Source: Opitutales bacterium
GTDB taxonomy: Bacteria; Verrucomicrobiota; Verrucomicrobiia; Opitutales; PNEW01
Length of the DNA stretch: 64,000 bases
NCBI GenBank assembly: GCA_965197745.1
Contig: CBDANS010000007.1
Coordinates: 1,824,001 to 1,888,000 of the forward strand
Reading direction: 5' to 3'
This document shows, one piece after another, positions 21,968 to 59,177 of the stretch. Positions within the stretch are counted from its first letter, which is position 1. Every line of letters begins with the position of its first letter. The notes under the pieces are model-generated. The model searched no databases, was not told the DNA's origin, and saw only the letters and a list, made by a program, of their open reading frames with translations. A program made the translations under genes and the position numbers.

Positions 21968-22044
<77 letters not shown>

Positions 22045-22082
22045 AATTAGGCAAAGTTGAGTAATTAGGAGTGAATTGAATA

Positions 22083-22364
22083 TCAACTCAAGGTTTTTTT
22101 TGCTTTAGGTTGTAATCCCGTCATAGCAAAAAACCCATTTCCACCCTTTTGTCTTTTAAGCTTATTCTACAAAATTCGGGCATGGGATAGATTCATAGGT
22201 CTACTAAACCATACAATACTCCAAGGGCCTCTGCTCCGTGTCCACCGACTTACGCCCGAATTATGATCTTCCTGACGTTTGTGAAAATTATTGCTCAGTC
22301 CAATATAAAAACTCCCCACTGAATTTTGCAATACATAGACATGGTAGAGAGGGTCCGTGCGCAT
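22083..22364 (-). pseudogene. Small GIY-YIG endonuclease with an internal TAG at 22167-22169
   Basis: HVYVLQN...FYIG...KRQEDHNSG...WT...GPW...ARIL*NKLKRQKGG; the second copy has Glu at the stop position. Confidence 0.85.
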
Positions 22365-22491
22365 GAGTTTAAGAATAATTAACTCAGAATCTTTTATCGG
22401 CACAACCTGCGCTATGTTAATACTTCCATAACGACAGTTTGGAGATTAATTGGCCATAAGCTGATTTTACGCCGATCCCGCAGTTGCGGGA

Positions 22492-22530
22492 TTATGAGCC
22501 TGACGAGCTACCGGACTGCTCCACCCTGCA
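22492..22530 (-). pseudogene. 5' half of tRNA-Met, truncated after the anticodon loop and fused to an 18-bp palindrome (22475-22492)
   Basis: Identical to 22006-22044; continues into ATCCCGCA-AC-TGCGGGAT. Confidence 0.9.
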
Positions 22531-22942
22531 AAGTAGGCAAAGGTGAGTAATTAGGAGTGAATTGATTATCAACTCAAGTTTTTTTTGCTCAGGTTGTAAT
22601 CCAGTCATGGCAAAAACCTCTTTTCCACCCTTTTGTCTTTTAAGCTTGTTTTCCAGAATTTGGGTATGGGATAGATTCATAGAGCGGCTATGCAATACAA
22701 TACTCCAGGGGCCTTTGTTCTGTGTCCACCGATTCACGCATCAATTATGATCATCCTCGAAAAATGCGTGTCCGCTATCATATAAAATCTTCTTGCTTTC
22801 CTCAAAGCAGTAGCTATTTCTGACTGTTTCACAATGGCTGGGTCTGTCCCGATGATTTCACCCATAAATTTTAATACACCTACGAATATACATTATATAA
22901 TACAGCTAGTATTCGGTTAGCTCCGGCTATTAACGGTCAGAT

Positions 22943-55948: not shown

Positions 55949-57562
55949 ACTTTAATTCAAAAGTATCGCCAGCTATAAGAGTGACAGGGGATCAAAACTT
56001 AAAAGGCGCTAATTCATCTACACGATTGACAGGAGGAATAAGTGAAAACGCCTGCCGCCTTTTCCTTGTGAGTCGGGAATGGTTACACCATCCAGCCGGT
56101 ACAGATTGAGTTTGTTGCGTAAGGTACGAACGTTCACCTTTAATAATTTCGCGGCATGGGTTCGGTTTCCTCGAGTTACTTTCAGCGCGCGCAATATTTG
56201 TGCCTTCTCAATTTCTACCAGGGAGACTACTTCGTCTGCTCTCGCTGTGGATCTCACCCTTTCCAACTCTTTAATACGGGCTGAGACAGAGTATAAATGA
56301 TCATTGTCTTCAAGGGCAACCTGATCACTATGTCGTGAAGAATTTAGACCAAATGATACTGCATCGAGGGTGCCACCATTTCCTGACATGATAACCGCTC
56401 GCTCAACAGCATTCTGCAATTCTCGCACATTGCCGAGCCAATCTTGTTCCTGTAAATAATCCATTGCTTCAGGCGATATCCCGCTGATTTTCACCCCATG
56501 CTTGGGAGCGGCCGCTTAGCAAAATACGTCGCTAATTGAATAATATCTGATCTACGCTCCCTGAGGGGAGGATTGTTAATAGGGAAAACATTTAACCGGT
56601 AAAATAGATCCTGGCGAAATTCTCCTTTTTCAACACATTGCACAAGATTGCGATTAGTCGTGGCTAGAACACGAACATCCACCTTGATCGTTTTATTGCC
56701 ACCAACACGTTCAAATTCGCGTTCTTGCAATACACGGAGAAGTTTAGCCTGCAGAACGGGTGATATCTCACTGACTTCATCGAGCAGAATGGATCCGCCA
56801 TTAGCCAGTTCAAATCGACCCTCCCGACGCGCCATAGCACCGGTGAAGGCTCCTTTCTCATGGCCAAAAAATTCACTCTCTATAAGGGAATCTGAAATAG
56901 ATGCACAATTCACCTTGGTAAATGCTTTCCCGTCGCGGGAGCTGCCCTTATGAATTTCATTTGCTACGAGTTCTTTACCGGTCCCACTTTCACCTTGAAT
57001 GAGTACCGTGGCTTCTGTGGGTGCTACTTTTTTGATGAGTCTCCGCAGATTTTTAATAGCCGGACTGCTCCCGAGAATCCCGGTATCGTGGTCAACACCC
57101 TGACTGTAAAAACGGTTCAAGCTGAGAATATGACTATAATCCTCCGCTTTATTAATGATAATATCAATCTGGCTGTGATTGGACCCCGTTTTTCGTACCA
57201 ATTATTAAGTGAGAGAGTTCCCGGGTATTAATGGTTTTAGGATTGATGTATATGAGAGATCTTGGCGAAGTGAGGGCGTAGCCCGAACGCGGCCAAGATC
57301 TGAAAGGAATGTGACAAACTCTTGTGGGCTTTTAAAGCCTAAACGACTGTGGGGATGATCATGGTTATAGGTCTGGCGCCATTGTTCGATTACAACTTGT
57401 GCTTCAGCCACGCTGAGCAACACTTCACGGTTCAAACACTCATCGCGTAAGCGGTTGTGAAACGACTCGATGAAACCGTTTTGCCAGGGACTGCCCGGAT
57501 CGATATATATCGCCTTGATCTTTTTGTCGGACAACGACTGCTGCACCTGATGAGCAATGAAT

Positions 57563-57594
57563 GGCTTCGCATGTCGTCGCTTCGCTCCTCGGAA
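57563..57594 (-). repeat. 32-bp mini-hairpin insertion TTCCGAGGAGCGAAGCGACGACATGCGAAGCC
   Basis: Splits the expected Glu codon of SDNGS-E-F; net +31 bp causes a frameshift. Confidence 0.8.
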
Positions 57595-57722
57595 CACTGC
57601 CGTTGTCACTACGGATATAGCTGGGAGCTCCCTCCTTTTCAATGGCCTCGCTAAGCACAGAGAGGACATCCGATGAGGGGAGTTCACGAGCGACCCGGAT
57701 ATCCAGACATTCACGCGTATAT

Positions 57723-57765
57723 GGCTTCGCTTCGCTTGAGTGTCGTCGCTTTCAGCTCCTCGGTA
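57723..57765 (-). repeat. 43-bp mini-hairpin insertion TACCGAGGAGCTGAAAGCGACGACACTCAAGCGAAGCGAAGCC
   Basis: Splits the expected Glu codon of ID-E-YTREC; net +42 bp with an in-frame TGA. Confidence 0.8.
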
Positions 57766-58194
57766 CATCGATCAGAGTCATCATCTTTAATGGACCGCCA
57801 TGGTCTGTGCGATCATGGACAAAGTCCCAGGACCAAAGGTGATTGCGACCGGTTGCTTTAGTAGGCGACCCCGTAGAGACCCCTTGACGGTGTCTACGCT
57901 TTTTAGGTGGCTTTACCTGCAACCCTTCTGAACGTCGTACCGCCTGAACAAACTTCCTGTTTGTTGTCCAGCCTTCCTTTACGAGCAAGGCACGGATGCG
58001 CCGGTAACCGTAGCAGGGATGTTCCCAGGACAGGGTTATAATCCGCTCGGCCAACCGCTGAGCTTTCTTACTGGCCTGCTTGGGCTGGTAGCTGAAAGTT
58101 GACCAACTGAGGCTGAGGTAGGAACAAGCCCTTCGCAACGAGCACAGCCCTCTCTCAGCCGCATCTTTTACTACTCGCTTCTTCTGCTTGGGGC

Positions 58195-58461
58195 TCACCA
58201 CTTTTTTGACAGCGTTTCCTCCATTACCTGATTCTTAAGCATTTGATCAGCGAGCATCTTCTTCAACTCGGTGTTTTCTTTTTCCAGCTCTTTAAATCGC
58301 TTCGCATCGGCTAGTTCCAAATTGCCATACTTTTTACCCCAGCGATAGAAGGTCTGTTCACTCACGTTGTTGCCTCGGCAGATTTCCTCTACCGTTTTTC
58401 CGGTATCGGCTTGCCGCAGTATTGCGATGATCTGTTCTGTTGTGTATCTTTTTCTTTTCAT
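58195..58461 (-). CDS. IS3 OrfA (HTH)
   Basis: 88 aa MKRKRYTTEQII...SEQTFYRW...LEKENTELKK...SKKW. Confidence 0.93.
   Translation of the reverse strand: MKRKRYTTEQIIAILRQADTGKTVEEICRGNNVSEQTFYRWGKKYGNLELADAKRFKELEKENTELKKMLADQMLKNQVMEETLSKKW
58201..58207 (-). promoter_or_regulatory. Programmed -1 frameshift motif A AAA AAG
   Basis: A6G at the orfA/orfB overlap, typical of the IS3 family. Confidence 0.8.
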
Positions 58462-59177
58462 GAGGTTATCTGTTTATCCCGATAACCTCTCTCTGTTAAT
58501 GATACCATTTTTGGGGGTCACTCCAGCTGGTTGAAAATGGTTTGATAATATAATCAAAAGCACCTTCCCGCATACAATAGACAGCAGATTCAACCGAGGC
58601 GTAACCTGTCATCATGACTATCAATGGGGCATTCGGAGCTTTCGACAAGATGCGAAGCAAATCAGTACCGTCACCATCCGGTAATCTTACATCCATGAAG
58701 ACAAGGTCGAACAATTCATTTCTCAAAGTGCGTTCAGCGCTGGCAATAGTGTCCGCTGTTGCGATACTGCGTACTTTATTTGACAGTTGTTCTTCCATCG
58801 ACCTTCGAACCGCAAATTCGTCGTCGATCACTAATATTTTCTCTATGGCCATAAGCACGCCTTTTAGGGACAAAGGGTGTTTTACATTTTTTTTAACGTT
58901 AGGTCTATTGTTAGTTGATAAAAATTTTAAGGTTAATGGCGAGACGCGTATTGCCTTCAAATATCCCGGTTTAAAGCATTGGCATGATGCAATAAATAAC
59001 GTTGAAGTTCGTAAATTGTTGGTATTGTGGATAAAAAAACAAATTTTACATTTCCATAAACACTAATTTAGAAAATCAGTTATAAGGGTTGCATTACCAA
59101 AGTGAAATTTTAGATAATAAGAGACACTGCCATCGAACCGTAATTATTGAGATAACGCCCCAATAAAATACCGAGAA

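Follow-up and report, generated by a model that had tools for sequence, protein, structure and literature searches.

How a transposase gene comes to be interrupted twice within its catalytic core by two related segments of a few tens of nucleotides, and how such segments could then spread, is the question raised by an insertion sequence (IS) in the analyzed window, a 64,000-nt stretch of the genome of an Opitutales bacterium (G000:C7:1824001-1888000).

The IS Element of the Window

The element, designated IS-I, has a length of 1350 bp and is located on the minus strand (57176-58525). Its limits were obtained by BLAST comparison of the window copy with the genome, in which the common limits corresponded to query positions 36-1385. 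The termini are TG...CA (TGGAG...AATCA), as is characteristic of IS3 elements, and reading of the flanks revealed a 4-bp target duplication, CAGC, on both sides (left copy, 58526-58529, minus strand; right copy, 57172-57175). The orfA gene (58198-58461, minus strand) encodes an 88-aa protein with an HTH_Tnp_1 domain (Pfam, E 1.3e-21). Its overlap with orfB contains the heptamer A AAA AAG (58201-58207, minus strand, read in the sequence), which we take, from what is known of IS3 elements, to be the usual -1 frameshift motif.

The inserts of 43 and 32 nt cut orfB into three open segments, all on the minus strand. Segment 1 (57766-58201) comprises HTH_21 and the region of the first catalytic Asp and ends with ...LID; segment 2 (57595-57722), from YTREC to SDNGS, belongs to the rve core; and segment 3 (57205-57562) starts with FIAHQ, includes the catalytic Glu and rve_3, and is open to the stop codon. 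According to the Pfam analysis, IS-I contains HTH_Tnp_1, HTH_21, rve, and rve_3, and the OrfB of an intact relative contains HTH_21, rve (3e-22), and rve_3 (1.1e-25). The host of the inserts is thus a member of the IS3 family, as indicated by the HTH OrfA and DDE rve OrfB, the termini, the target duplication, and the A6G motif.

IS-I splits the gene of a sigma-54-dependent response regulator, the receiver domain being upstream of it and the AAA+ domain downstream (minus strand, 56494-57201 and 58499-58960); since the element lies between these two domains, the regulator is inactivated in G000. In addition, orfB contains, where it encodes the C-terminal part of the protein (57255-57300, minus strand), a 10-bp perfect inverted repeat (AGATCTTGGC ... 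GCCAAGATCT) with about 25 nt between its arms. It is also found in intact relatives and is therefore a part of the IS and not another insert.

The Inserts and Their Empty Sites

Insert 1 (32 nt; 57563-57594, minus strand) occupies site 1, where it replaces one A of AGT-GAA-TTC, and insert 2 (43 nt; 57723-57765, minus strand) occupies site 2, where it replaces one A of GAT-GAA-TAT. They are 128 nt apart, have one orientation, and are each flanked by TG at the 5' side and AT at the 3' side. The pattern CCGAGGAGC-N(0-6)-GCGACGACA has two matches in the window versus none in 100 shuffles. Insert 2 is in frame and brings a TGA codon; the net gain from insert 1 is 31 nt, so the frame is shifted. A third site, GAT-GAG-TGT (57439-57441, minus strand), is empty in the window copy, and its Glu codon (GAT-GA?-TGT) carries a third sibling insert of 36 nt in 14 other G000 copies.

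Among 15 aligned copies of the same IS in G000, site 2 was empty (...GATG-A-ATATACG) in seven, and site 1 was empty (...CAGTG-A-(A/G)TTCATT) in three. These empty sites in older copies indicate that each insert is exchanged for a single A of a Glu codon, with a net gain of 42 nt (insert 2) or 31 nt (insert 1) and with no target duplication. Both segments are gains at the DNA level, for which ancestral empty sites exist; insertion is precise and site-specific, with one insert type per site. When the OrfB of the intact relative was aligned with the HTLV-2 integrase core, site 2 (IDE|YT) was aligned with VDTFSG, in the turn that follows the second strand; site 1 came immediately after the DNG with the second catalytic Asp, and site 3 was approximately nine residues past the catalytic Glu.

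The original prediction, which was made from the letters of the window, had described two sibling inserts of the same orientation with TG/AT flanks, each replacing one A of a TGAAT without duplication and adding either an in-frame stop or a frameshift to the DDE core. The coordinates, the spacing, and the shared pattern were reproduced, the alignment of empty sites from the same genome bore out the replacement of one base, and the stop and the frameshift were located in the 43-nt and 32-nt inserts, respectively. The transposase may be disabled by these inserts.

Distribution of the Inserts in the Genome

A search for the core CGAGGAGC-N(3-6)-GCGACG detected 126 matches in G000 versus 0 for the backwards control. 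One hundred of these are in IS3-type orfB genes, 23 are in GTCATTGCGAGGA-type repeats, and three are linked to tRNA genes. The orfB copies are always in the sense orientation and are confined to the three fixed sites, each of which has its own insert type with no exceptions.

Among 36 near-full IS-I copies of G000, none was free of inserts. Inserts 2 and 1 were present together in 24 copies, all three inserts in five, insert 1 only in three, insert 3 only in three, and inserts 1 and 3 in one. Two near-uniform subfamilies, one of 9 and the other of 14 copies, belong to the group of 24 with inserts 2 and 1, and this form alone among the IS-I forms of G000 is multi-copy and near-identical. Interrupted copies have good ends and target duplications.

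A second IS3-type element, IS-II (1318 bp), shows about 70-75% DNA identity to IS-I where the two can be aligned; its homologous site, SDNGS|EF, is occupied by insert 1. Fifteen IS-II copies are at least 99.5% identical to one another. A 94% subfamily of IS-II comprises nine occupied copies and four identical empty ones, the latter with a single long open frame of about 400 codons. Further diverged IS lineages contain diverged insert variants at the same sites. The inserts are near fixation among young IS copies. Chimeric IS copies (G000 C7:1673280-1674707; G001 L133) consist of the left part of IS-I and the right part of IS-II, joined exactly at insert 1; being common to both, insert 1 serves as a bridge for recombination across IS families that are otherwise diverged.

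Transfer between IS Lineages

Two IS-I subfamilies, A and B, have 36-53% synonymous differences in the vicinity of insert 2 and in the stretch that separates the inserts, and 9-11% after insert 1. The dN/dS values between them are 0.07-0.21, which means that A and B diverged as working genes. Their inserts differ at no more than one position in 75 nt, and the flanks of insert 2 diverge within about 10 nt. As for IS-II, its insert 1 is identical to that of IS-I, and its left flank retains the lineage-specific sequence as far as the junction. On the downstream side, the gain of the insert is accompanied by three nearby changes (AG to CA and T to C). In the 94% subfamily of IS-II, a distant linked polymorphism is divided 2/2 among the empty copies and 4/5 among the occupied ones, all four combinations being present. 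A tree of IS copies, meant to date the gains, was scrambled by recombination.

These comparisons show that each insert passes from one IS lineage to another as a unit of its own, accompanied by at most about 10 nt of flanking sequence. The inserts rise quickly to high frequency among IS copies, and their vertical neutral inheritance is excluded. Three readings are left, namely, homing-like conversion, repeated amplification of interrupted copies together with conversion, and strong selection on inserts required by the IS.

Structure of the Module

The inserts belong to a family of purine-rich, non-coding modules of about 23-43 nt. A module starts with T(A/T)CCGAG(GA); next come a small hairpin that varies and GACGACA, and GCGAAGC is usually found close to the 3' end. 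The junctions common to the siblings are G|T...C|AT; in all contexts, the module starts after G or C, and the first A of an AAT is replaced. Within the IS, the modules are inserted in Glu codons (GAA-T) that belong to the catalytic core of the transposase. Other YGAAT sites of the IS are never occupied, and G000 contains 23,808 such pentamers.

The heptamer GCGAAGC forms an exceptionally stable mini-hairpin. Nearest-neighbour DNA folding in comparison with shuffles showed that the inserts as a whole are not unusually stable (z +1.25 and +1.76). The position after GAGGA holds palindromes that differ in sequence across the members of the family, including the 69-copy repeats described below, which indicates that a hairpin at this position is a conserved feature. 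The 5' part of the module was also considered as a foreign tRNA 3' fragment, and none of the 44 tRNAs examined ends that way.

GIY-YIG Genes and tRNA-Linked Copies

The GTCATTGCGAGGA-type repeat is present in 69 copies in G000. It ends near AATCCAG, and its outer motifs, GTCATT...AATCCAG, are NTS-like. Thirty-two copies are short, 30 contain a nested unit, and seven have other forms. The nested unit starts with TACCGAG, and its junction, GC|A|AT, is of the type found in the IS. Four small GIY-YIG genes (97 aa) are bracketed by inverted copies of this repeat in units of about 470 bp (for example, L159, C7:1545400-1546150, and L160, C7:483400-484100). One such protein (type 1) matches PF01541 and also PDB 1zg2, a UPF0213 protein. 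Many other copies of the repeat look like cargo-free hairpin derivatives.

The three tRNA-linked copies of the core are located just 3' of tRNA-Asn and tRNA-Gln genes. They are hairpins composed of the tRNA T-arm and its complement, in which the module replaces the A after TTCG (T-loop G57/A59), and they end with the tRNA 3' end. Comparison of one such copy with the Rfam family RtT (RF00391) gave 23.7 bits, which is below the gathering score of 45. The related genome G002 has, behind an intact tRNA-Asn gene, two 397-bp units in tandem (L139, G002:C1:398000-401000, minus strand, 1150-2032). Each of them combines a GIY-YIG gene encoding 93 aa with an AT-rich hairpin and then with 23 nt from the 3' half of the tRNA; the module follows in the T-loop, and the unit is closed by the tRNA 3' end.

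A locus with GIY-YIG genes is also present in the window itself. A 78-aa GIY-YIG gene (22170-22403, minus strand) lies just upstream of the tRNA-Met gene (21968-22044), and a partial tRNA 5' half extending to the anticodon loop and a second GIY-YIG remnant (22492-22737) are found further upstream (region 21968-22750). This locus looks like a set of tandem tRNA-targeting GIY-YIG mini-elements.

One and the same core forms the interior of the GIY-YIG-bracketing repeats, the nested unit in about half of them, and the core of the RtT-like tRNA repeats. This Opitutales lineage has the module family as a native component.

The original prediction had also suggested a genome search for the motif, in the expectation of further copies with the same flanks in mobile elements, and a gene for a RAYT/TnpA or GIY-YIG protein flanked by it. 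More than 100 copies were indeed detected, almost only in mobile elements and with the same junctions, G|T...C|AT. The GIY-YIG alternative likewise found its counterpart in the four genes bracketed by core-bearing inverted repeats and in the G002 gene beside a tRNA half with the module. The link with the HUH/REP-RAYT system was not supported: the only Y1_Tnp gene of G000 has no flanking repeats. The proposal of an ultra-small, site-specific, non-autonomous element is supported as regards true insertions of one family with the same junctions, but not as regards a HUH/REP-type route.

Related Genomes

The core pattern was found in five of the 41 genomes of the order that were searched, including G000. 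G001 and G002, which belong to the same family, contain the same IS, the same inserts, and the tRNA-Asn-linked module. The other two core-positive genomes (Puniceicoccaceae and Opitutales records) contain related tRNA-Ser-linked or dispersed repeats. G002 has two fully intact IS-I copies and 45 matches to the empty site 1, four of which also have an empty site 2. About 40 G002 copies carry the 43-nt insert only, and all four of those inspected correspond to the intact copies with insert 2 and 0-2 substitutions.

In G040, an Opitutales genome of another family (L126, L131, L010, etc.), about 70 dispersed repeats contain one or two units of the TACCGAG-small hairpin-GAC(GAC)A type, representing a REP-like family with the same module. 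A scan of genome contigs for the core pattern yielded at least 116 stretches; among the matches listed, most were chance occurrences in high-GC genomes, and a few were real relatives from Opitutales, Puniceicoccaceae, and possibly Woeseiaceae. Searching metagenome contigs for the junction between the IS and insert 1 gave three matches, all due to chance.

Possible Explanations of the Spread

As the best explanation, we tentatively propose, with a probability that we judge to be slightly short of even, that the inserts are ultra-small non-autonomous modules spreading by homing-like copying into specific sites, probably with the participation of Ssn-type ssDNA nucleases, and leaving the IS non-autonomous; the mechanism is inferred. 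An empty site would be broken or exposed as single-stranded DNA, and an occupied copy would then serve as the template for its repair. A small GIY-YIG ssDNA nuclease would be the likely agent. Occupied copies would make no transposase and would either rely on intact copies or be dead. Homing-like copying is preferred because it would explain the strict pairing of insert type and site, the short co-converted flank, the lack of intact IS-I in G000 despite two young subfamilies, and the intermediate picture in G002. The likeness of the targets to the 3' AATCC motif decreases from the 69-copy repeat through the T-loop and IS site 1 to sites 2 and 3. Several observations argue against homing. The inserts do not have the outer GTCATT/AATCCAG motifs, and the nuclease is a candidate one. 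Locally perfect empty targets persist in G000 and G002, so that any homing must be incomplete or must need more than the local sequence; in addition, YGAAT sites elsewhere in the IS are unoccupied. Finally, ectopic recombination among IS copies is rife, including the formation of chimeras at insert 1, and the four-gamete pattern could therefore have arisen without homing.

The abundance of interrupted copies fits equally well an amplification after a single insertion. An insert would have been gained once per lineage, and the interrupted IS would have been amplified non-autonomously and MITE-like, served in trans by the few intact copies, with no homing. Intact partners exist, namely, the four identical insert-free IS-II copies in G000 and the two intact IS-I copies in G002. 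A GCAAAGC variant of insert 1 is restricted to one subfamily (12 copies), as expected if it was inherited by transposition, and the target duplications and good ends of interrupted copies point in the same direction. Nevertheless, this scenario seems rather unlikely to us. IS3-type transposases act preferentially in cis. Not one insert-free IS-I was found among the 36 copies in G000, despite the near-uniformity within each of two subfamilies (9 and 14 copies); identical inserts occur in lineages with 36-53% synonymous divergence; and the four-gamete pattern requires conversion anyway. Since interrupted forms are the most numerous and uniform, it is necessary to invoke trans-mobilisation, conversion after amplification, or recoding.

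Recoding would imply that the inserts are tolerated or even used, the TGA of insert 2 being read through and insert 1 being passed by a +1 shift or a ribosomal hop, so that the copies would be autonomous and merely attenuated. Besides the fact that only interrupted forms are multi-copy and near-identical in G000, this agrees with the length of insert 2, which is an exact multiple of 3, with the location of site 2 in a beta-turn, and with the frames of the inserts: the upstream frame reads V-P-R-S in both of them, and the downstream frame is open through the remaining part of the insert. In insert 1, the 5' CCG-AGG and the 3' CCA of the downstream frame could serve as take-off and landing codons. 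However, 25 of the 29 strict copies of insert 2 end with ACA instead of CCA, AGG is readable owing to the presence of tRNA-Arg(CCU), no known frameshift heptamer is present, diverged variants keep or gain stops, and the module is also present in non-coding contexts. The inserts are more conserved than nonsynonymous sites, which indicates recency and not coding constraint. Taken together, these data make recoding improbable. The idea of a hungry codon was rejected owing to the same tRNA-Arg(CCU).

Removal of the inserts from RNA as mini-introns, with restoration of the message, could be suggested by their invariable sense orientation and by the sibling in the T-loop of tRNA-like sequences. RNA data were checked using Logan contigs of two metatranscriptome and two other runs against positions 57100-58600, in the parts that were covered. 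Metatranscriptome contigs run without gaps through insert 1 (X20, 57483-57667) and insert 2 (X21, 57612-57845), and no joints skipping an insert were found in the contigs of the four runs, which are not raw reads and may include DNA carry-over. One contig of an RNA library carries an insert at site 3. The Rfam analysis of the IS yielded noise, with no family match and no RtT; excision could not restore the lost A; and in G002, an intact tRNA-Asn gene lies beside the interrupted halves. Mini-introns are accordingly the least plausible of these explanations, and we consider them highly improbable. Apart from these readings, a reverse-transcriptase route was rejected: no RVT_1 match was found in G000, although absence is not proven in a genome that is 92% complete.

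Homing-like copying could also be given a more specific form, which we regard as unlikely, namely, a gene drive against transposons that is powered by a nuclease and has the modules as its payload. An Ssn-type nuclease would cut YG-AAT in single-stranded IS3 DNA during copy-out-paste-in, a module-bearing copy would mend the break, and actively transposing ISs would be selectively and heritably sterilised. If true, this would represent defence, or a hyper-parasite, built from a unit of 32-43 nt that encodes nothing.

Comparison with Known Systems

Short non-coding inserts in open reading frames are known from translational bypass (T4 gene 60 and mitochondrial byps), where take-off and landing codons delimit the bypassed stretch. 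In gene 60, these codons are identical and a stop follows the take-off codon; in insert 1, the codons are CCG and CCA, and CCG is not followed by a stop. Matching codons are missing from most insert 2 copies, and the module is also found in non-coding DNA.

The SDR elements of Nostocaceae are reportedly mobile-looking units of a few tens of nucleotides that enter other repeats at defined short sites. Their sequences and their phylum differ from those of the module, and we know of no link of SDR to IS catalytic codons or GIY-YIG genes. A passage on Nostocaceae SDR in PMC5861425 cites Elhai et al. (2008, Genome Res). As for REP/REPIN sequences, the inserts resemble them in being short, strand-specific, hairpin-bearing, and present in about 100 copies. 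They differ from the REP/REPIN-RAYT system in their intragenic location (100 of 126 in orfB), in being single rather than paired, and in having no GTAG-type head.

The RtT repeats of the E. coli tyrT operon (RF00391; rttR, tpr) are similar to the tRNA-linked copies in their location 3' of a tRNA and in the hairpins of T-arm and complement. The RtT behind tyrV in E. coli has the same layout, an insert at the same T-loop position, and the GCGAAGC heptamer; its interior is 64 nt long, whereas that of the tRNA-linked copies is 32 nt. In E. coli K-12 (L005, 1286300-1287800), the RtT behind tyrV/tyrT can be read as the tRNA-Tyr T-arm plus its complement, into which about 80 nt are inserted at this position. 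To our knowledge, RtT has not been described inside IS genes. The similarity suggests that an event of this kind also gave rise to RtT, which would be its relic.

With homing introns and free-standing endonuclease genes, the inserts share super-Mendelian spread to empty alleles, precise junctions, short co-converted flanks, and the vicinity of GIY-YIG and tRNA genes. An example of such a free-standing gene is T4 SegB in the tRNA cluster (PMC2330249). The differences are that the module encodes nothing and has a length of 32-43 nt, that the nuclease, if any, would act in trans, and that the target is a multi-copy transposon.

A literature search of limited coverage revealed no reports of such inserts in transposase genes or of their sweep through IS families. 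In its behaviour, the module resembles a mobile unit, among the smallest that have been seen in bacteria, and it sweeps through dozens of IS copies. If its spread is driven by a nuclease, this would be a natural way of disabling transposons copy by copy, and it would give a function and an origin to the long-unexplained tRNA-linked repeats of the RtT type. If the interrupted genes are still expressed, they would represent a new case of recoding.

Another of the closest known systems is that of the Ssn family. According to the consulted passages of Chenal et al. (Nat Commun 2025, PMC11893778), GIY-YIG proteins of this family are site-specific ssDNA nucleases. Their substrates are hairpin repeats with GTCATT...AATCYRG on the outside, which are bound in single-stranded form and cut a few nucleotides upstream; the repeat-gene-repeat layout resembles an IS, and cleavage and an effect on transformation, but not mobility, are reported there. 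The passages of that paper concerning coding, intragenic location, and insertion say nothing on repeat copies inside genes. The published degenerate SRM string, HGTCWY...RNCYNB, gave 16 matches in G000 versus 19 in the control, none of which overlapped the inserts or the 69-copy repeat. The IS inserts differ from the Ssn repeats in having no outer motifs or long palindrome and in their location in coding sequence, at fixed codons, with one base replaced. They also do not flank small GIY-YIG genes, whereas the related 69-copy repeat does so at four loci. At the same time, the single-domain GIY-YIG genes of G000, with their inverted hairpin repeats and GTCATT...AATCCAG outer motifs, resemble the NTS-ssnA-NTS arrangement, and the IS inserts contain the 17-nt interior core of these repeats. 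Orientation matters in both cases, and the conserved 5' end of the inserts is at the position reported for the Ssn cut, a few nucleotides upstream. Hairpin repeats tied to small GIY-YIG (Ssn) nucleases were described only in 2025. The pairing of hairpin repeats with GIY-YIG genes has already been published; what seems to be new here is the stripped-down modules at transposase catalytic codons and in the tRNA T-loop, together with their sweep through IS families.
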